A stretch of 30,672 bases of DNA from Minisyncoccota bacterium (lineage in GTDB: Bacteria; Patescibacteriota; Minisyncoccia; Phycocordibacterales; JAACPR01), in assembly GCA_036516995.1 (NCBI GenBank), contig DATDYW010000056.1, forward strand, positions 1 through 30,672, given 5' to 3'. The notes under the pieces were generated by a model. It saw nothing but the letters and a program-made list of their open reading frames with translations. It did no database searches and was not told the DNA's origin. Both the position numbers and the translations under genes were made by a program. This document shows, piece after piece, positions 1,574-25,124 of the stretch (positions are counted from its first letter, which is position 1; each line of letters begins with the position of its first letter).

Positions 1574-1656
1574 AGTTGCCATTCTACGCGCATTTGGCAG
1601 GTTCGGCCAAAGATTGAAACTGGCCCAGGAAAATGCATAATGGCCCAGCCCTCAAT

Positions 1657-1739
1657 GCCCAGGTGGTGGAATTGGTATACACACACGCTTGAGGTGCGTG
1701 ACCGTTTACGGTATGCGGGTTCAAGTCCCGCCCTGGGCA
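1657..1739 (+). tRNA. tRNA-Leu (anticodon GAG)
   Basis: Acceptor GCCCAGG/CCTGGGC, D-loop GGAATTGGTA, anticodon stem CACGC/GCGTG with loop TTGAGGT, long variable arm, T-arm GCGGG-TTCAAGT-CCCGC, discriminator A; CCA not encoded. Confidence 0.96.
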
Positions 1740-1952
1740 CACAAGAAATCACCCCGCCGCCGAGGCGGGGTGATTCTTTTGATGTGTGTGCCCAGGGCGG
1801 GACTTGAAAGCCGGAGCGCACCGGAGCGAAGCGGAGGTCTTCGACGAGCTTCCCAGCGAGGAGAAGGCGCGAGCCGGGGTCGCGGGTACTTAGGTTTTTG
1901 GATTCGCAGAGCGAATTCAAAAAACTTAGTAACCCGTGACCAAGTCCCGCCC
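1720..1952 (+). repeat. tRNA-anchored structured element, copy 1 (arms match tRNA-Leu)
   Basis: Perfect 24-bp inverted repeat of the tRNA 3' end (1720-1743 / 1785-1808), then a 132-nt core (1809-1940) shared with the tRNA-His element, then a third T-arm copy CAAGTCCCGCCC (1941-1952). Confidence 0.9.
1747..1780 (+). terminator. Terminator-like hairpin after tRNA-Leu
   Basis: AATCACCCCGCC / GGCGGGGTGATT 12-bp stem followed by CTTTT. Confidence 0.65.
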
Positions 1953-2058
1953 CTCATAAAAATTTTATCGGTCCTTTACCCGCAAATTGTTTTGCTGGGG
2001 CGATGCTCGCGTCGAGAAAAACTCCGCCCCTTCTCGGTTCTGCTACACTCTCCACGCC

Positions 2059-3336
2059 ATGTGGGAACCCTTCGCCTTCGATCGGCGCGACGTCGCTGGC
2101 GTGCCCGTGTTCGTTCGCGCCGTGCCCTGGGTCACGGGCCACGCGGCAATTCGCGTTGCCTTCTCCGTCGGGGCGCGCTCCGACGTCGAGGGCCGCGAAG
2201 GGCTGGCGCACTTCTTCGAGCACCTGCCCTTCGACGGCTGCGAGGGGGCGCCGACCCACGACGACGTCGAGACCGTCCGCCACACGCTCTTCATGGACAC
2301 GCTCAACGCTTTCACCGGCATGGAGTACACCGTCTTCGTGGGCCGCTGCCGGACGGAGCGCATTCCCGAGGCGCTCGACTTCTTCCGCCGCCTCGTCTGG
2401 AAGCCAATCCTCGATCCCGCAGAGCTCGAGCGCGAGCGGCAGGTTATCGTCCGTGAAATTTGGCGCCTCTACGGCACGCCGAAGGACCTCGAGCTCGTTC
2501 GGCTGGAGTGGGCCGACCTGATGCCGCCGGGCCACCGCTTCGCCACACACTTTCGCCCGCTCGGGCGACCGGAGACCGTCGGCGCCGTGACCCGCGAGGA
2601 GCTCCTGGCTTTCCACCGCGAGCGTTACGTCCGCGAGAACCTCTCGATTTTCGTTGTCGGCGACGCGCCGGCCGAGGTGCTCGACCCGGCGATCGAGGCG
2701 CTCGTTGCCGCCGTGCCGAGCGGCGCCGCGTTCCCGGCGCCGACGCTCATTGTCGAGCCCCAGCACCCGCCCGTGCCGCTGCGCGACATTTCCTACAAAG
2801 AGTTCTTCGGCGTCTCGGAGGAGGCGCGCCCGAAGAACACCGAGGTCGAGTGGAGCCGCATCGTGCCGCGGCCGACGTCCGAGGGCCAGCTCCGGCTGGC
2901 GGGCCGCCTGCTCTCGCGCGTCCTCAAGGACGCGATTCGCGGGAAGTTCGGCGCCACCTACAGCGTCTCGACGTACGTAGACATCTTCCGCGACCTGGCG
3001 CTCGTCGGCGCCCACACCAAGGTTGAGCCTGCGCGGGCCGACGAGGTGCGCGCCCACGCCGAGGCGACGCTGGGAACGCTACTCGCCGCCGCGCCCGAGC
3101 ACGCGGCGAAGTTCGGCGAGGTGCGCCAGGCGATGCTCGACCGCGCCGAGGCCGAGGAGTTCCACACCGGCCGAATCGCCGACGACGCCGCGACCGACTG
3201 GGTGGTGGACGGCAAGATTGCGCTGAAGTCGGTGACGGTCGCCGACGTGCGTGCCGCTACCTACGCGGGAACCTGCCGGCTGCTCGCCGACAGCCTGCAG
3301 CCGGACAAGTGCCAGCGGCTGATCGTCCGACCGTAA
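2059..3336 (+). CDS. M16 family (insulinase/pitrilysin-like) zinc peptidase
   Basis: Inverted zinc motif HFFEH, LNAFTG..YT, ERERQVIVRE and IRGKFGATYSV (M16 C-domain). Start ATG 2059 lies 9 nt after TGCTACACT. Confidence 0.88.
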   Translation: MWEPFAFDRRDVAGVPVFVRAVPWVTGHAAIRVAFSVGARSDVEGREGLAHFFEHLPFDGCEGAPTHDDVETVRHTLFMDTLNAFTGMEYTVFVGRCRTERIPEALDFFRRLVWKPILDPAELERERQVIVREIWRLYGTPKDLELVRLEWADLMPPGHRFATHFRPLGRPETVGAVTREELLAFHRERYVRENLSIFVVGDAPAEVLDPAIEALVAAVPSGAAFPAPTLIVEPQHPPVPLRDISYKEFFGVSEEARPKNTEVEWSRIVPRPTSEGQLRLAGRLLSRVLKDAIRGKFGATYSVSTYVDIFRDLALVGAHTKVEPARADEVRAHAEATLGTLLAAAPEHAAKFGEVRQAMLDRAEAEEFHTGRIADDAATDWVVDGKIALKSVTVADVRAATYAGTCRLLADSLQPDKCQRLIVRP

Positions 3337-3343
3337 AAAGGAA

Positions 3344-3361
3344 AAGCCCCAATCGGGGCTT
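3344..3361. terminator. Short hairpin after the M16 gene
   Basis: AAGCCCC-AATC-GGGGCTT with an A-rich 5' flank. Confidence 0.5.
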
Positions 3362-3371
3362 CTAGGGTGCG

Positions 3372-3563
3372 CTACGCGGCGCACTCGGTTCGCCCGAGGC
3401 AGGGAACCGAGTGGTAGGCGTTGCAGCTGCGGCACCAGGCCTTCCGGTGGGGCACGCCCGTGTCGCGCGTCTTGTCGACGGCGGATTCGCGGGCGAGGCG
3501 AGGCTTGGCGAACGGCCGGAGAGATCCGGTGCTGGCGGTGTGGGAAGAGCAGTCGCAGACCAT
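3372..3563 (-). CDS. Possible small Cys/His-rich protein (63 aa)
   Basis: MVCDCSSH...WCRSCNAYHSVPC; a metal-binding-like spacing fills an otherwise empty gap, but competing overlapping ORFs exist. Confidence 0.35.
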   Translation of the reverse strand: MVCDCSSHTASTGSLRPFAKPRLARESAVDKTRDTGVPHRKAWCRSCNAYHSVPCLGRTECAA

Positions 3564-3673
3564 TCCCCGCCATTCTCGGTCTGGCTCTCTCGGGCGTCAA
3601 TCGCTAGCCGCACCGCGCCTCATACTGTAGATTGCGGCTCGAATGTTCTTGTCCCCGCCCGGTCCCAATTTAC

Positions 3674-3746
3674 GGTGCCTATGGTGTAACGGTTAACACT
3701 CGAGCTTGTGGAGCTCGCAATATGGGTTCGACTCCCATTAGGCACC
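3674..3746 (+). tRNA. tRNA-His (anticodon GTG) with encoded G-1
   Basis: G-1 at 3674 opposite C73; acceptor GTGCCTA/TAGGCAC; anticodon stem CGAGC/GCTCG with loop TTGTGGA; T-arm ATGGG-TTCGACT-CCCAT; CCA not encoded. Confidence 0.96.
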
Positions 3747-3966
3747 CTCGCTCCGATCCGAACCCGGCGCCGCGCCGGGTTTCGGCATTGGAGGAGCGAG
3801 GGTGCCTAATGGGAGTCGAAAGCCGCAGCGCACCGGAGCGAAGCGGAGGTCCGGCCCGAGCTTCCCAGCGAGGGCCGGGCGCGAGGCGGGGTCGCGAGCA
3901 CTTAGCCGAATGGGATTCGCAACGCGAATTCCACGAGGCTTAGTGACTCGTGACCGATTCCCATTA
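3727..3966 (+). repeat. tRNA-anchored structured element, copy 2 (arms match tRNA-His)
   Basis: Perfect 28-bp inverted repeat (3727-3754 / 3793-3820) around an inner hairpin, a 134-nt shared core (3821-3954) and a third T-arm copy CGATTCCCATTA (3955-3966; 11/12 match to the tRNA). Confidence 0.9.
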
Positions 3967-3987
3967 CGTACCTGCTATCCTCTCACC

Positions 3988-4527
3988 ATGTTTCTCGCAG
4001 AAATTCGTGGAACAAAAATCCACCTGAGGCCCTACCAGCCCTCCGACATTTCCGCTTGGCAGCGGTGGGACGTTGACCCAGAGGTGCAGAGGCATATGCC
4101 CGGCTCTCTCAACGCTCCCGTTTCGGATGAAAAGCAGCTCGAGTACCTAAAAGAGTGCGAGGGCGAGCGGGACGGGGTCTACTGGAGCGTAGCCAGCAAT
4201 GGCGGCGACGTCCTCATCGGCAGCGTTGCCATCACCGGCATCAGTGACGGAGCGGGAGAGCTCGGAGTCGTGATTGGAGAGAAAGATTACTGGGGGAAGG
4301 GAATCGCGCTGGAGGCTGTGACGTTGGCGTGCGGCGCGGCGCTCAGGGAACTTAACCTCAAGAGCGTCTTCGCCGAGTACGAGGAGGGAAACGTTGGTGC
4401 TCAGAAAGCGCTCGAGAAGGCTGGTTTTGTCAGAGAGGCTTTTCTGGAGGGCTCACGCGATAAAGACGGATTGAAGATAAACACTTTCAAATACGTCCTG
4501 ACTAACAAATTGCAAAACTCTGACTGA
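3988..4527 (+). CDS. GNAT family N-acetyltransferase (RimJ/RimL-like)
   Basis: IHLRPY..SD, ELGVVIGEKDYWGKGIA (acetyl-CoA motif A), N..AQKALEKAGFVREA. ATG 3988 is 6 nt after TGCTATCCT; the track's upstream extension runs through the tRNA element. Confidence 0.9.
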   Translation: MFLAEIRGTKIHLRPYQPSDISAWQRWDVDPEVQRHMPGSLNAPVSDEKQLEYLKECEGERDGVYWSVASNGGDVLIGSVAITGISDGAGELGVVIGEKDYWGKGIALEAVTLACGAALRELNLKSVFAEYEEGNVGAQKALEKAGFVREAFLEGSRDKDGLKINTFKYVLTNKLQNSD

Positions 4528-4530
4528 GGT

Positions 4531-4605
4531 TTGGAATGTAAATCGCCACGCCACTTCTCTCAAAAACAGTTCTGACTTCCTCCGCGACGGCACCCTAACG
4601 AGAAT
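4531..4605. repeat. Direct repeat R1 (family of three)
   Basis: TTGGAATGTA...CTCTCAAA..CAG..CTGACTTCCTCC.CGACGGCACCC.AACGAGAAT; homologous to 7081-7140 and 8149-8221. Confidence 0.88.
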
Positions 4606-4647
4606 AGAACTAGAAAACGCTTCTTGGGGAAGCGTTTTCTAGTTCTA
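4605..4647. terminator. 19-bp perfect hairpin between the convergent GNAT and TrmB-like genes
   Basis: TAGAACTAGAAAACGCTTC / GAAGCGTTTTCTAGTTCTA, 5-nt loop. Confidence 0.65.
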
Positions 4648-4676
4648 GCCGCTGAAACTTTTAGATGTCCTGTCGT

Positions 4677-5441
4677 TTAGGCCGTGAGCCACATTCTCTT
4701 AAAGACCTCGCGCATATTGGATGCGAGCATTCGGTCGTTGATTTCGACGAGGTAGTAAGGGTGCTGCTGCGTCACAATCATCACGATGCGGTCTCCGCCG
4801 ACCCACACCGAAGCGCTGAAGGACACGTCCTTAGAGAACTTGATGTCACGCACCGGGCGAGGCTGCTTCGACGCGAGAGCCCGTTCCGCTGGGGCATCGT
4901 TGCCCACGAGTCGCATCTTCGTCTTGCTGCTGAAGGGCTGCTTCCAGTACCAGCTGAGCCACTTCTGGTATGCCTCCAGGAAGGTGTAGTCCTGGATTCC
5001 CCACCACGTGCCGTCTAAGGCGAGCACGTCTGCCTGCCACTGCTCAATGTTTTCGTAGAGGAACTCCTCGAGCCTGTGCTCCTCGACAAAGCGAATCTTG
5101 GGCACGGGGTGGGTCTTGCCCGCAGAGATGTTCGCCGCCTCTGCCGCGACCTCTCGGAGCATCGCCGTCTTCTCGTCGAGTGCGCGTCGGTCACGCTCGG
5201 CCGCTTTCTCAAGGCTCGCGGGGGAGATGGGCGAAAAGCGGACGCTCTTGCCGCTAATATCAGCCTCTACGAAACCTTTGGACTGGAGGGACTGGGCCAC
5301 GCTGTAGACGGTGGCTCGATTTACCTTGGTGGTTTTGGACAGCTCCGCCGGAGTCGCCGGGCCGCTCCGCAGCAGGGCCAGGAAAATGGAAATCTCCTTG
5401 TCGTGCAGGCCGAGCCGACCGAGCGTTTCTTTTAGCGCCAC
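4677..5441 (-). CDS. TrmB-family winged-HTH transcriptional regulator
   Basis: LGLHDKEISIFLALLRSGPATPAELSKTTKVNRATVYSVAQSLQSKGFV is a TrmB-type N-terminal HTH, followed by a coiled segment and a C-terminal effector-type domain; GTG start. Confidence 0.85.
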   Translation of the reverse strand: MALKETLGRLGLHDKEISIFLALLRSGPATPAELSKTTKVNRATVYSVAQSLQSKGFVEADISGKSVRFSPISPASLEKAAERDRRALDEKTAMLREVAAEAANISAGKTHPVPKIRFVEEHRLEEFLYENIEQWQADVLALDGTWWGIQDYTFLEAYQKWLSWYWKQPFSSKTKMRLVGNDAPAERALASKQPRPVRDIKFSKDVSFSASVWVGGDRIVMIVTQQHPYYLVEINDRMLASNMREVFKRMWLTA

Positions 5442-5467
5442 GCCCGAAGGCTACTCCGTTGGTAGGT

Positions 5468-5710
5468 ATTCGTCAACAATTGTTGGACAGTCATCCACAC
5501 CTAGATGAAGGTGGCCTACTATATTTTCGGAGTAGGATACGGCTGACCAAACACCGCAATTACTCTTATGGAGGCTCCAGCTGAAGAAAACAAGGGCAGA
5601 GAGACTGAGTTCGCTCGTCTCTACGAAACACTCCTGCCAGAGGCTCAGGCAGCAGCCTCAACTGAGAAGGGGGTGCAGGATTCAGTTGTCGAAGATTCGT
5701 CAACAATTGT
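5468..5710. promoter_or_regulatory. Two identical 16-bp sites ATTCGTCAACAATTGT (5468-5483 and 5695-5710), candidate operators
   Basis: Exact direct repeat in the divergent intergenic region; the first copy extends into the palindrome CAACAATTGTTG, the second lies 10 nt upstream of the -35 box. Confidence 0.6.
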
Positions 5711-5720
5711 CCAACATATC

Positions 5721-5749
5721 TTGACAGATAGCAAAAAAGAGAATACAAT
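5721..5749 (+). promoter_or_regulatory. Sigma70-type promoter for the radical SAM gene
   Basis: TTGACA (5721-5726), 17-nt spacer, TACAAT (5744-5749). Confidence 0.8.
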
Positions 5750-5774
5750 TGAAGACAAATCAAGACCTATAAAA

Positions 5775-7007
5775 ATGAAAACTTATAACTATGAAGCTGA
5801 GGTCCTCAATCCTGAAGACCCTGCCCTGAATGCAGAGGCTGGAGCCGCTTTCAGTCGTTTTGTGGAAGCGTGGGCCGATAAAGTTGACCTGCGCGACCCC
5901 GCCTCGATTGAAGCTGCCCACGAAGCTGCCAGTGAAGCTGGCCTGTTCTCGCTTGCCGAGCGAGCCCGCGACTACTACTTCGGCAAGAACGTCCATACCT
6001 ACGGCGTGGTCTACCTCTCCGACCTCTGCGTCGAGGGGTGCGAGTTCTGCCCAGCCGGAATCCACAACCGCGAATACAAGTCGCGGACGCTCTCCACGAA
6101 AGAGCTCGTCGCAGACATCGCGGCGGTGCTCCTCCAGGGCCACGAGAAGGTCTGCTTCCTCCAGGCGAACTGGAAAGAGGCGGCGTTCCTTGCCAAGGTG
6201 GGCCACTGGCTGCCGGAGGTCATCAAGACGTGCGGACCGCTCGGCCTCAAGGAGCTCATCCTGAACGTGCAGACGCTCTCGGAGGCGGGCTACCGCAAGG
6301 TGTTCGCTATTCGGGATGCGGTTGACCCCGCCTTCACCATTCAGGTGCGGACGTTCCAGGAAACCTACGACCGCGAGGCCTACGCTGCGCTCATCCCAGA
6401 GGCCAAAGGTGGGGTTAAGCACGACTTCACCCAGCGCCGTGACACCCAGAAGGTGGCGTGGAAAGCGGGGGCTGACTCGGTTGGCCTCGGCGTCCTGTTC
6501 GGCCTCTCGCCGAAGCCGCTCGAAGAGCTCCAAAAGCTCATTGAGCACGCGAAGGAGCTCCAGTCGGAGGGGGCTAAGGTAGTGCGAATCTGCCTACCGA
6601 CCGCTCACTCGGTTGATGGCCTGAAAACCAGCATTCCCTTCGACCTCCCAACGTCCGACAAGGACTACCCGCACTTCGCGGAGTTGGTCTACAGCCTGGC
6701 CCGTCTCGCCTTGCCCGAAATGAATTGGGTTATGAGCGAACGGGACCCGGCCGAAGTTCGGGACCAGCTCGTGAAGTATGCGTCGGAGACGACGGTCGGA
6801 GTTCACCCCGGTGTTGGCGACAACCTGGACCTCTTCCTTGCGAAAGAGCGGGGTCTGCACTTCGAGCAGGCGACGGTCTACTCGGAAGAGCCGGACCAGT
6901 ACGTCGAGCGGATGGCCAAGAGTGGTTACACCGTGAAAATGGACGCGTCGACAGAGCGTCGGGAGAAAATCCGGAACACCATCCACAGTCTCGTTCTCGT
7001 TGGCTAA
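5775..7007 (+). CDS. Radical SAM enzyme, ThiH/HydG/NosL-like (aromatic amino-acid lyase type)
   Basis: YFGKNVHTYGVVYLSDLCVEGCEFC (CxxxCxxC), QETYDREAY, KHDFTQR, GADSVGLGVLFGL match ThiH/HydG-family blocks. No C-terminal Cys motif. Start moved to ATG 5775, downstream of the promoter. Confidence 0.82.
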   Translation: MKTYNYEAEVLNPEDPALNAEAGAAFSRFVEAWADKVDLRDPASIEAAHEAASEAGLFSLAERARDYYFGKNVHTYGVVYLSDLCVEGCEFCPAGIHNREYKSRTLSTKELVADIAAVLLQGHEKVCFLQANWKEAAFLAKVGHWLPEVIKTCGPLGLKELILNVQTLSEAGYRKVFAIRDAVDPAFTIQVRTFQETYDREAYAALIPEAKGGVKHDFTQRRDTQKVAWKAGADSVGLGVLFGLSPKPLEELQKLIEHAKELQSEGAKVVRICLPTAHSVDGLKTSIPFDLPTSDKDYPHFAELVYSLARLALPEMNWVMSERDPAEVRDQLVKYASETTVGVHPGVGDNLDLFLAKERGLHFEQATVYSEEPDQYVERMAKSGYTVKMDASTERREKIRNTIHSLVLVG

Positions 7008-7012
7008 ACAGA

Positions 7013-7039
7013 GCCGCCCATCTTCGGATGGGCGGTTTT
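7013..7039 (+). terminator. Intrinsic terminator after the radical SAM gene
   Basis: GCCGCCCATC-TTCG-GATGGGCGGT followed by a T run. Confidence 0.75.
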
Positions 7040-7080
7040 CCTTCCCTAGAGAATAGTGGCGAGCGGGGTGGGGCAGAGCA

Positions 7081-7140
7081 TTGGAATGTAGAAAGTTGAT
7101 TCGTTTCTCCTCTCAAACCCAGCCCTGACTTCCTCCACGA
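7081..7140. repeat. Direct repeat R2
   Basis: 31 nt (7110-7140, CTCTCAAACCCAGCCCTGACTTCCTCCACGA) identical to 8173-8203; TTGGAATGTA start shared with R1. Confidence 0.88.
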
Positions 7141-7158
7141 TGTCCACATATTTTAAAT

Positions 7159-7218
7159 CGTGAAAATACACAGTTTTGCGCATATTTTCACGGTTATATT
7201 GATAAAACAGTGAAAATA
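7159..7218. promoter_or_regulatory. Inverted repeat upstream of the Fic gene, candidate operator
   Basis: CGTGAAAATA (7159-7168) / TATTTTCACG (7183-7192), plus a third half-site GTGAAAATA (7210-7218). Confidence 0.45.
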
Positions 7219-7234
7219 GCTATACTTGAGAGGC

Positions 7235-8131
7235 GTGGCAAAAACATCTGCGGTCTTCGGCAAGATCAGCGCCCTTCGGGAGAGGTACTACAAGGCATTG
7301 CCGGGGAAAGAGGCGCTCGTCGCGCTCCTTGGCGAAGCGGAGGTCGCGGAGCAGGTGTACAACTCGAACGCCATCGAGAACAGCACGCTGAGCCTCGAGG
7401 AAACCGAAAAGATACTCCTCCAGATTGATCTCGATCGGTATATTTCCGAGAGAGAGATATTCGAGGCAAAAAACCTCGCCCGGGTCGTGTCCTACATCGA
7501 CAAGCGGGCCAAAGAGCACGAGCTCCTCCCCGACGTCATTCTGTCGCTCCACAAGATGCTGATGTCGAACATTCGCGACGAGATTGCCGGGAGATTCCGC
7601 GAGGACGGCGAGTACGTCCGCGTCGGGAGCCACGTAGCTCCGGCCCCAAAAGAGATTAGCGGGGGTCTCGAGAAAATGTTTTCGGAGTACAACGCCGCGA
7701 GCCACGAAAACATCATCAAGCGTATCGCGCGGCTGCACCTCGCCTTCGAGCGCCTCCACCCGTTCAACGACGGGAACGGGCGCATAGGGCGCGTCATCAA
7801 TAACTACCTGCTGATCCGGGAAGGTTTTGTTCCCATAAACATTAAGTTCATCGACCGGAAGAGGTACTACGAGGCCCTCAAGGAGTTCGACGAAAGAGGC
7901 GCGACCGCCACCATGGAAGAAATAGTCGGCAGGGCGCTCACCAACAGCTACCACAAGCGCCTCGCCTACCTAGAGGGCAAGAAAATTGTCACGCTCTCCG
8001 ACTACGCGAAGGGCAATAAAATCTCTCACTCCAATCTTATTAACAAAGCCGGTCGGCAAACCATCGAAGCTTTTCTGGAGAAGGGGGTTTGGAAGATCGC
8101 CGAAGACTTTAAGAATGGGCCGGGGCGGTAG
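7235..8131 (+). CDS. Fic family protein (class II-like), with a C-terminal HTH-like extension
   Basis: Canonical HPFNDGNGRIGR motif; N-terminal SNAIEN fits the (S/T)xxxE(G/N) inhibitory helix; GTG start at 7235 after GAGAGG. Confidence 0.92.
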   Translation: MAKTSAVFGKISALRERYYKALPGKEALVALLGEAEVAEQVYNSNAIENSTLSLEETEKILLQIDLDRYISEREIFEAKNLARVVSYIDKRAKEHELLPDVILSLHKMLMSNIRDEIAGRFREDGEYVRVGSHVAPAPKEISGGLEKMFSEYNAASHENIIKRIARLHLAFERLHPFNDGNGRIGRVINNYLLIREGFVPINIKFIDRKRYYEALKEFDERGATATMEEIVGRALTNSYHKRLAYLEGKKIVTLSDYAKGNKISHSNLINKAGRQTIEAFLEKGVWKIAEDFKNGPGR

Positions 8132-8148
8132 CGGCGGGGGAGAGCGCG

Positions 8149-8221
8149 GGAATGTAAACAGCCACCCCACCTCTCTCAAACCCAGCCCTGACTTCCTCCA
8201 CGACGGCACCCAAACGAGAAT
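8149..8221. repeat. Direct repeat R3
   Basis: GGAATGTA...CTCTCAAACCCAGCCCTGACTTCCTCCACGACGGCACCCAAACGAGAAT; matches R1 over its full length and R2 over 31 identical nt. Confidence 0.88.
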
Positions 8222-10083: not shown

Positions 10084-10110
10084 TTGTAGGGAGAGTCTGT
10101 GCTTCTGCAA

Positions 10111-10224
10111 CGGGAGGCTCCATTCGGCGCGCAAAACGGTCTCGTACGCCTCGCTCTACATTCGTAGCGCGTCGGCTAGCGAGAACCGTTTTTCGCATCC
10201 AAATGTTGCCTCTGTGGTGATTCG
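10111..10224 (+). repeat. Structured palindromic repeat SR-A (~115 nt family)
   Basis: Starts CGGGAGGCTCCATTCG and ends GTGGTGATTCG; nested stems; homologous to 22394-22507 and 24998-25111. Confidence 0.88.
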
Positions 10225-10310
10225 ATTAGGACGAGTAATTTCAGAGGTGACAGTTGGAGCCGAAAACCGTTTCCGTGGTGACTCGTTTAAGGAAAGAAAA
10301 AAGAAACATG

Positions 10311-14307: not shown

Positions 14308-14568
14308 ATGGCAACCAAGCTCTTCGTTGGGAACCTCCCGTTCTCCGCGACCGATGATTCTATTCGCGAGGCTTTCGCCCCGTACGGCACCGTAACTTCG
14401 GCCTCCGTCGTTATGGACCGCGAGACCGGCCGCTCCCGTGGCTTCGGTTTCGTTGAGTACGAGGGTGACGGCCAGGCCGCGATTGACGCCTGGAACGGCA
14501 AGGCCATGGATGGCCGCCCCCTGACCGTCAACGTCGCCCGCCCTCGCGAGGATCGCCCGCGCTTCTAA
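14308..14568 (+). CDS. RRM (RNP-1) RNA-binding protein
   Basis: RNP2 KLFVGNLPF, RNP1 RGFGFVEY, MDGRPLTVNVAR. Confidence 0.95.
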   Translation: MATKLFVGNLPFSATDDSIREAFAPYGTVTSASVVMDRETGRSRGFGFVEYEGDGQAAIDAWNGKAMDGRPLTVNVARPREDRPRF

Positions 14569-21694: not shown

Positions 21695-22393
21695 ATGTCC
21701 ACCGAGACCAAGAGCTCCGTCGCGATTCCGGCCGCCATCGTCGTCGCCGGCCTCATCATTGCCGCCGCCGTTTTCTTCACCCGCGGCGCGGCGCCCGCTG
21801 GCACCACCGCCGCCAAGCCCGCGGCCGCGGGCGACCCCAAGGCGGTCGCCGCCGTCACCGCCGCCGACCACATCCGCGGCAGCCTCGATGCGCCGGTGAA
21901 GGTTGTCGAGTACTCCGACATCGACTGCCCGTTCTGCCAGCGCGTCCACCCGACGCTCAAGCAGCTTCAGGCGGAGTACGGCGACAAGGTCGCCTGGGTG
22001 TACCGCCACAATCCAATCACCGGTCTTCACCCAAACGCCGAGACAAAAGCTATTGCAACGGAGTGCGTTGCTAAACTTGCGGGCAATGATGCCTTCTGGA
22101 AATTTCTAGATGCAGTTACCGAAGATACAGCTCCAGGTCGCAACGACCTCACCCGTCTCCCGGCCTTGGCTGCAGAGGCAGGCGTGACCGACGCCGCGGC
22201 GTTCAAGGAGTGCCTGGATAGCAAAGAGGGACTTTCAAAGATTAAGGCCGACATGGCGAACGCAGCCGCGACCGGCGGCCGCGGCACGCCGTGGACCATC
22301 GTGGTTAGCAAGGACGGGAAGGAGGCGGTGGCGGTATCCGGAGCGCAGCCCATCGATGCCTTCAAGGCGGCGGTAGATTCGATTCTCAAATAA
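21695..22393 (+). CDS. DsbA-family thioredoxin-fold protein (membrane anchored)
   Basis: N-terminal TM helix, GSLDAPVKVVEYSDIDCPFC, GTPW cis-Pro loop, GAQP. Confidence 0.92.
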   Translation: MSTETKSSVAIPAAIVVAGLIIAAAVFFTRGAAPAGTTAAKPAAAGDPKAVAAVTAADHIRGSLDAPVKVVEYSDIDCPFCQRVHPTLKQLQAEYGDKVAWVYRHNPITGLHPNAETKAIATECVAKLAGNDAFWKFLDAVTEDTAPGRNDLTRLPALAAEAGVTDAAAFKECLDSKEGLSKIKADMANAAATGGRGTPWTIVVSKDGKEAVAVSGAQPIDAFKAAVDSILK

Positions 22394-22507
22394 CGGGAGG
22401 CTCCATTCGCCGCGCAAACCGCTCCTCCGCCCCTCGCCGTACAGGAGTACGTCGTCGGGGACGGTCGGGGCGGTTTTCGCTGGCGACTGTCGCCTCCGTG
22501 GTGACTC
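22394..22507 (+). repeat. Structured palindromic repeat SR-B
   Basis: Begins immediately after the DsbA stop with CGGGAGGCTCCATTCG and ends GTGGTGACTC. Confidence 0.88.
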
Positions 22508-22617
22508 TCGGCCAAAAGATCGAATCTTTAAGATCCGATCTTTTGTGTGGCACCTTTTTACTTCTTCCTTCGTCTGGTGCTACGATACCCGAGCCAAATT
22601 AACCCTTACGTCGCAGT

Positions 22618-24978: not shown

Positions 24979-24997
24979 ATTTAAAGTAGGAGATACA

Positions 24998-25111
24998 CGG
25001 GAGGCTCCATTCGGGCCGCAAACCGTGCCGCTACGCCTCGGAGTACATTCGTACACCGTCGGCTAGGCGTCAGCGGTTTTCGGCGCCGACTGTCGCCTCC
25101 GAGGTGATTCG
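24998..25111 (+). repeat. Structured palindromic repeat SR-C
   Basis: CGGGAGGCTCCATTCG...GAGGTGATTCG, 19 nt after the rplK stop. Confidence 0.88.
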
Positions 25112-25124
25112 AGAATTTGTGTCA

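Follow-up and report, generated by a model that had tools for sequence, protein, structure and literature searches.

The window, by which we mean the whole 30,672-nt stretch of DNA that was analyzed, is contig C56 of a 705-kb genome that is 93% complete and carries 47 tRNA genes. It contains two copies of a repeated element, the first downstream of tRNA-Leu(GAG) and the second downstream of tRNA-His(GTG), with genes for an M16 peptidase and a GNAT protein as neighbors (Table 1). The Leu arms and core together occupy 1789 to 1953, and the His copy, which has no gene of its own, spans 3800 to 3972. The last 21 nt of tRNA-His (3727 to 3747, from T-loop T54 to the discriminator base) are the source of the arm sequence, and this tail occurs exactly three times in the window, as the gene, as the antisense arm, and as the 3' arm, compared with a chance expectation of 0.11. 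At its 3' terminus the 5' arm reads GAGTCGAA, the antisense of the T loop. When 3675 to 3972 was folded, 3727 to 3820 formed a single hairpin of ~45 bp. The first-pass annotation had delimited the feature as 3727 to 3966. Its 3' limit required correction, the real end being at ~3972, and the segment from 3727 to 3820 was found to be the tRNA 3' end, a hairpin, and its antisense copy rather than part of a free-standing motif.

Table 1. Coordinates of the tRNA-associated features in the window
Feature	Position	Strand	Description	Basis
tRNA-Leu(GAG), host of the first copy	1657..1740	+		ARAGORN; Rfam tRNA
Leu copy with hairpin	1741..1953	+	terminator-like hairpin 1747-1775	
Leu 5' arm; core; truncated 3' arm	1789-1808; 1809-1940; 1941-1953	+		
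tRNA-His(GTG)	3675..3747	+	intact, without encoded CCA	ARAGORN; Rfam tRNA 62.6 bits
Trailer, GC-rich hairpin, and antisense trailer copy	3748..3799	+	hairpin apex near 3771-3773	sequence, fold
His 5' arm	3800..3820	+	exact reverse complement, 21/21, of tRNA-His 3' end	sequence search, arm comparison
P2 domain	3821..3889	+	strands 3821-3831 / 3879-3889	alignment, pair counts, MFE fold
Hairpin Pa inside P2	3832-3850	+	GA-GC-GAA-GC-GA module	
Hairpin Pb inside P2	3851-3878	+	CCGGCCC/GGGCCGG	
P3 domain	3890..3954	+	conserved strands GGTCGCGAGCACTTAG (3890-3905) and CTTAGTGACTCGTGAC (3939-3954)	
Variable covarying hairpin enclosed by P3	3906-3938	+		
His 3' arm	3955..3972	+	direct tRNA-His 3'-end copy from T-loop C56, 3 mismatches	

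The first-pass annotation had described two closely similar cores with differences confined to stems, and every identity and stem match that it listed was present. The cores are identical at 30 of their first 31 nt and share the block CGAGCTTCCCAGCGAGG, and the differences between the His and Leu copies are indeed located in stems. Helix Pb is CCGGCCC/GGGCCGG in the His copy and CTTC../..GAAG in the Leu copy, helix P3 is CGCGAG/CTCGTG and CGCGGG/CCCGTG, respectively, and the variable hairpin has changed in sequence with its pairing kept. The CGCG/CGTG wobble is the pair G3894·T3951, which was G·T in 20/20 copies in this genome and in 35/36 copies in other genomes. A recurrent motif, TTGC(A/T)TT(A/G)CTGGGGCGATCGC, which lies 50 to 70 nt past the 3' arm of several copies, was observed at 1984 to 2012 and also 3' of copies on contigs C2, C3, C15, C22, and C45. 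It contains the palindrome GCGATCGC, is often preceded by a pyrimidine-rich run, and could be the promoter of the next gene or another repeat.

The element folds as a three-way junction, in which P1 is formed by the two arms (3' arm paired with 5' arm in the His copy), P2 carries hairpins Pa and Pb, and P3 carries the variable hairpin. The irregularities of P3 are conserved and consist of the wobble G3894·T3951, a bulged A, and a T·T mismatch. Homologues were gathered, and a MAFFT-based alignment (A1) of 20 copies from this genome, with a structure of 52 pairs, was used to build the covariance model R1. In A1, 92.7% of the cells held standard pairs, compared with 33 to 41% when the partners were slid, and 29/52 pairs had changed on both sides, compared with 8 to 13 in the slid controls. 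A second set of 36 copies from 30 other genomes, unused in building the model, gave 94.6% paired cells (31 to 38% when slid) and compensatory changes in 47/52 pairs, values with some bias toward pairing because this alignment was fitted to R1, a bias of which A1 is free. The observed pairing values were reached by 0/500 shuffles. The covarying structure that had been proposed from the two window copies alone was therefore upheld, with covariation far above chance in both copy sets, and the element shows compensatory base-pair changes on one strand, the generic criterion for a structured ncRNA.

The paired positions of 55 copies comprised 2200 Watson-Crick, 137 G·T, and 22 A·C cells. With the near-invariant G3894·T3951 left out, the ratio of G·T to A·C was 83:22, whereas strand-symmetric mutation predicts 1:1. 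Folding energy was lower on the + strand in 20/21 copies (mean, -96.8 kcal/mol on the + strand versus -87.5 kcal/mol on the - strand), and the His copy had z values of -8.8 (+) and -6.1 (-) when folded as RNA and of -5.6 (+) and -4.2 (-) when folded as DNA. The motif GCGNAGC, an extraordinarily stable DNA mini-hairpin (PMC13037366), had 47 occurrences on the + strand, and its complement had none. Given the 137:22 excess of G·T and the near-invariant wobble, the folded strand is the + strand, that is, the tRNA-sense strand. Selection on a single-stranded + strand fold, as opposed to coding or duplex sequence, had been suggested in the first-pass annotation and is supported by the covariation, the 137:22 ratio, the 20/21 copies, and the 47:0 count. 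Protein coding was ruled out, as the ORFs lie on both strands, there is no protein-level conservation, and the substitutions follow the pairing. The strand asymmetry is also explained by single-stranded DNA, and the G·T excess fits RNA equally well.

In this genome, R1 gave 56 matches, of which 45 remained without reverse-strand echoes, and 27 of these 45 lay within 450 nt downstream of a tRNA gene on the same strand. Occupied tRNA genes numbered 24/47, with the first copy 41 to 76 nt downstream, and several further copies were situated at contig ends. The element targets tRNA 3' ends in a layout that was always the same: the tRNA, a terminator hairpin, the tRNA tail copied in antisense, the core, and the tail once more as a direct copy starting from nucleotide C56 of the T loop. 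The unit measures ~300 nt, without an ORF of its own, and the core accounts for ~135 nt. As tRNA genes free of the element mostly lack the module of A-run, hairpin, and T-run too, the hairpin was taken as part of the element.

The arms are target derived. Cores at different tRNAs reached 89% identity, while the arms were unrelated to one another and matched their own tRNA at 21/21 positions; with cores so nearly alike and arms fitted to each tRNA, the arms must be renewed once a copy reaches a new tRNA. The antisense arm of some copies extends to tRNA positions 52 and 53, farther than P1 needs, so the tRNA itself is the template of the arm. On contig C25, the arms of one copy match the tRNA-Asn of another contig.

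Turnover of the element between close relatives was evident. Behind tRNA-His, two congeneric genomes have a plain terminator in place of the element, and the genes after tRNA-His are unrelated among all three congeners compared. At the tRNA-Leu/M16-peptidase locus of genome G002, the copy belongs to another core subfamily and has the same truncated 3' arm. Tandem, nested, truncated, internally deleted, and chimeric copies occur. As a separate observation, the segment of the window from 3973 to 8221 (the GNAT gene and the array that follows) has no counterpart at the orthologous loci L081 and L082, which also differ from each other, and tRNA-His appears to be a hotspot at which gene content varies.

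Most copies carry no cargo. At tRNA-Gln(CTG), ~700 nt of cargo with an ORF lies between the tRNA and the element, flanked by a 27-nt direct repeat. This locus (contig C37, 11728 to 12657; L020) has a tRNA gene with encoded CCA and the trailer GCTTGAGC, and the 3' arm of its full element repeats 27 nt of the tRNA-Gln end plus trailer; a similar trailer was seen at tRNA-Asn on contig C51, where it runs into inserted genes. In a chimera on contig C1 (72 to 446), the first core is joined directly to another tRNA-like T loop and 3' end, a tail without a tRNA body, and a second element comes next.

Hairpin modules were present in both orientations. The terminator-like modules at tRNA-Tyr (C22, 11313 to 11360) and tRNA-Val(TAC) (C7, 3840 to 3894) are reverse complements of each other, a flip/flop that is the pattern expected from hairpin-primed copying or inverted-repeat inversion. 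No excised form, circle junction, or empty/filled allele pair with both flanks conserved was seen. In reads from four DNA runs, contigs broke at the repeat, and apparent joints were cross-matches to other copies. A search for an empty site with both flanks conserved found none at tRNA-His, where the downstream genes of the three congeners are unrelated, and none for the cassette at tRNA-Gln, of which there is no orthologue.

Within the order, R1 matches were obtained in 45/61 genomes, with none in the other 16/61. Genomes with the element measure roughly 0.5 to 1.1 Mb, and the number of matches ranged from 24 to 56 per genome in this genus and from 1 to 12 in other genera. AT-rich relatives show the same layout; there the direct repeat is often exact, reaches into the trailer, and once spans the whole terminator, and the antisense arm is more degenerate. 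The core sequence is strongly conserved throughout the order, for which a cellular function could also be the reason. The literature on tRNA-linked repeats in these bacteria, on miniature elements that target tRNAs, and on integration through folded single strands yielded no published description of the element family. Another family of palindromic repeats, ~115 nt long, was observed at gene 3' ends in the window (10105 to 10225, 22390 to 22510, and 24992 to 25112). These repeats start with ACGGGAGGCTCCATTCG, contain a central GTAC-loop-GTAC hairpin, and end with GGTGAYTC, which resembles GTGACTCG of the P3 strand of the tRNA element.

The first-pass annotation had proposed a candidate new ncRNA motif and a comparison with Rfam. 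At the gathering score, only the two tRNAs matched Rfam, and at E values up to 10 nothing relevant was found over the core in the region 1600 to 4050, so that no Rfam family covers the core. Rfam matches to MIR820 were discarded, as they merely reflect the long hairpin. The promoter scan predicted a promoter for tRNA-Leu and none for the element itself, and the hairpin at 1747 to 1775 was terminator-like in both directions. In a modelled read-through RNA, the minimum-energy fold placed the 3' half of the tRNA in the 45-bp hairpin and broke the cloverleaf. The folds of 55 copies contained 126 hairpin loops, of which 56 were triloops, 30 of them GNA; the 32 tetraloops included 1 GNRA and 0 UNCG. 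The loop types, the lack of a predicted promoter, and the read-through misfold together lean, on circumstantial grounds, toward a fold of single-stranded DNA. As it was put forward, the ncRNA proposal was not supported, given the missing Rfam match and predicted promoter, the GNA triloops, and the behavior of the element as a mobile one.

A functional structured RNA of the + strand, produced by read-through of the tRNA gene and with arms mimicking the acceptor/T-stem minihelix, is nevertheless the alternative that survives best, and we consider it unlikely. In cis, such an RNA could affect the 3' processing of the tRNA; in trans, it could be a decoy or regulator with specificity for a tRNA. 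Either role would be compatible with mobility. It would account for a + strand-specific fold with covariation and G·U pairs, for the position of the element on the same strand as, and immediately 3' of, a highly transcribed gene, and for single-stranded junction sequences that have been kept across an order; the His hairpin, moreover, has no clear U tract. It is less easily reconciled with the lack of a predicted promoter for the element, with the position of the Leu copy behind a terminator-like hairpin, with a read-through fold that locks the tRNA 3' half, with a loop repertoire that is not RNA-like, or with the lack of an Rfam match. A general role in tRNA maturation is also unlikely, since the element gave no model match in 16/61 genomes, is limited to 1 to 12 matches in other genera, and is missing at tRNA-His in two congeners.

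The reading that we favor, with moderate confidence, is that the element represents a non-autonomous, protein-less family of mobile DNA whose insertion site in this order of ultrasmall bacteria is the T loop and 3' end of a tRNA gene. In this reading, each unit supplies the tRNA with a hairpin terminator, followed by the antisense copy of the 3' end, the ~135-nt core, and the direct copy from C56. The + strand folds alone, with the arms forming a duplex replica of the T-stem/acceptor region next to the irregular P3 helix. By analogy with attC and the attP of CTX, this fold may form in single-stranded DNA and be the site that a trans-supplied enzyme recognizes and recombines, with the joint putatively at T55/C56. 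Each new target would serve as the template for the arms, one possible route being fold-back copying from the hairpin. The enzyme would be supplied by the host, a candidate being the single Xer-like tyrosine recombinase of nearly all these genomes. As a tentative suggestion, the family might be described as a tRNA-anchored, integron-like cassette system, a self-reprogramming integration module without protein that uses a host enzyme and has its arms retemplated at each insertion.

Two known systems with folded sites bear on the mobile-DNA reading. CTX-phage-type elements use the Xer recombinase of the host, and their attP is a folded single strand mimicking the target on the chromosome. The tRNA-linked element is similar in that its folded strand rebuilds a replica of the target duplex, that it encodes no recombinase, and that a host Xer-like enzyme is at hand; it differs in targeting a tRNA gene rather than dif, in its size of ~300 nt, and in its dozens of copies per genome. 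The attC sites of integrons are folded single-stranded recombination sites (PMC2727003). Like attC, the element is an imperfect palindrome with one active strand, conserved bulges and mismatches, and a structure that is kept more than its sequence, and both are found at the 3' end of a cassette with possible cargo. The strand-selective fold with conserved unpaired bases by which attC is recognized was found here as well, as a resemblance only. In contrast to attC, the element ends in ..GGAGTCGAA and GTGACCGATTCC.. without RYYYAAC ... GTTRRRY core sites, has no adjacent integron integrase or attI (the sole tyrosine recombinase gene is on contig C21), and targets the tRNA T loop with target-copied arms and a three-way-junction core of strong sequence conservation.

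Integrative elements of the T-loop class, which use tRNA genes, share the direct 3'-end repeat that begins within the T loop, an intact tRNA at one end, and the variable downstream genes, all of which were found here. Whereas that class encodes an integrase, the present unit, a miniature of ~300 nt, has no ORF and is set apart by its antisense arm and by a core that covaries and is strand specific. The copies could, in principle, be ordinary attL/attR scars left by integrase islands or prophages at tRNA genes, with the core as the attP region of arm-type binding sites. The direct repeat, the variable genes after tRNA-His in three congeners, and the cargo ORF at tRNA-Gln would be consistent with such scars, but we regard this explanation as improbable: there is about one tyrosine recombinase per genome, which is Xer-like and does not adjoin the copies, most copies are free of cargo, dozens of copies with near-identical cores lie at different tRNAs, and neither the antisense arm nor 47/52 covarying pairs nor strand-biased wobbles would be predicted.

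For non-autonomous mobile DNA of the kind favored here, the genomes were searched for candidate enzymes. About one tyrosine recombinase per genome was found in 59/61 genomes; the one in this genome matched XerD, XerC, and XerA models best, all below their cutoffs. As a Xer-like recombinase is near universal, its presence is uninformative. REP/BIME repeats, MITEs, and IS200/IS605 miniatures are also small, noncoding, and rich in hairpins, and Y1 transposases act on hairpins of single-stranded DNA. The element differs from them by its strict tRNA targeting, its target-derived arms, and its direct repeats of 12 to 60 nt, which are long in comparison with short target-site duplications. No cognate transposase (Y1 HUH, TnpB, or IS110) was found to co-occur with it. 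Y1/RAYT-like genes were present in 27/61 genomes, comprising 21/45 with the element and 6/16 without, and thus showed no association with it; nor did the element motif GTGAYTCGTGAC occur near them. In this genome, four ORFs of 224 to 258 amino acids on contigs C17, C18, and C71 gave weak matches to the IS200-like Y1 transposase domain, with the REP-associated tyrosine transposase as the best NCBIfam name, below its cutoff; on C17, two of these are inverted identical copies (5207 to 5431 and 14312 to 14536). The sole reverse-transcriptase match was a 243-amino-acid ORF on contig C53 (1733 to 2464) that corresponds to the first half of the group II intron type and is probably a truncated remnant. 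Across Xer-like, Y1/RAYT-like, IS110, TnpB, and reverse-transcriptase families, no enzyme linked to the element was found.

An RNA-guided mobile element modelled on the IS110 bridge RNA or the IscB/TnpB omega RNA, with the core as scaffold and the antisense arm guiding a recombinase or nuclease toward the tRNA gene, would fit the + strand fold and the ~20-nt target-complementary segment directly adjoining a conserved structured scaffold, but it is highly improbable, as the IS110 (DEDD) and TnpB zinc-ribbon families gave no match in this genome (93% complete), the element has no ORF and no recombinase or nuclease gene beside it (its neighbors being GNAT and M16), and each copy lies beside its own target rather than within a transposon end.

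In practical terms, the repeat breaks assemblies at tRNA loci, and ORFs opened across it by gene callers leave the region misannotated. Were the element to act as RNA, it would constitute a large, well-covarying, tRNA-tied RNA family in a major uncultured lineage. If the mobile-DNA reading is true, the element would be a compact, naturally occurring example of mobile DNA whose specificity is encoded by target-copied arms. This would bear on single-stranded DNA folds as recombination sites outside integrons and, possibly, on programmable insertion tools. In a genome of 0.7 Mb, half of all tRNA genes would then have been colonized and none broken, which would bear on gene gain and loss in ultrasmall bacteria.
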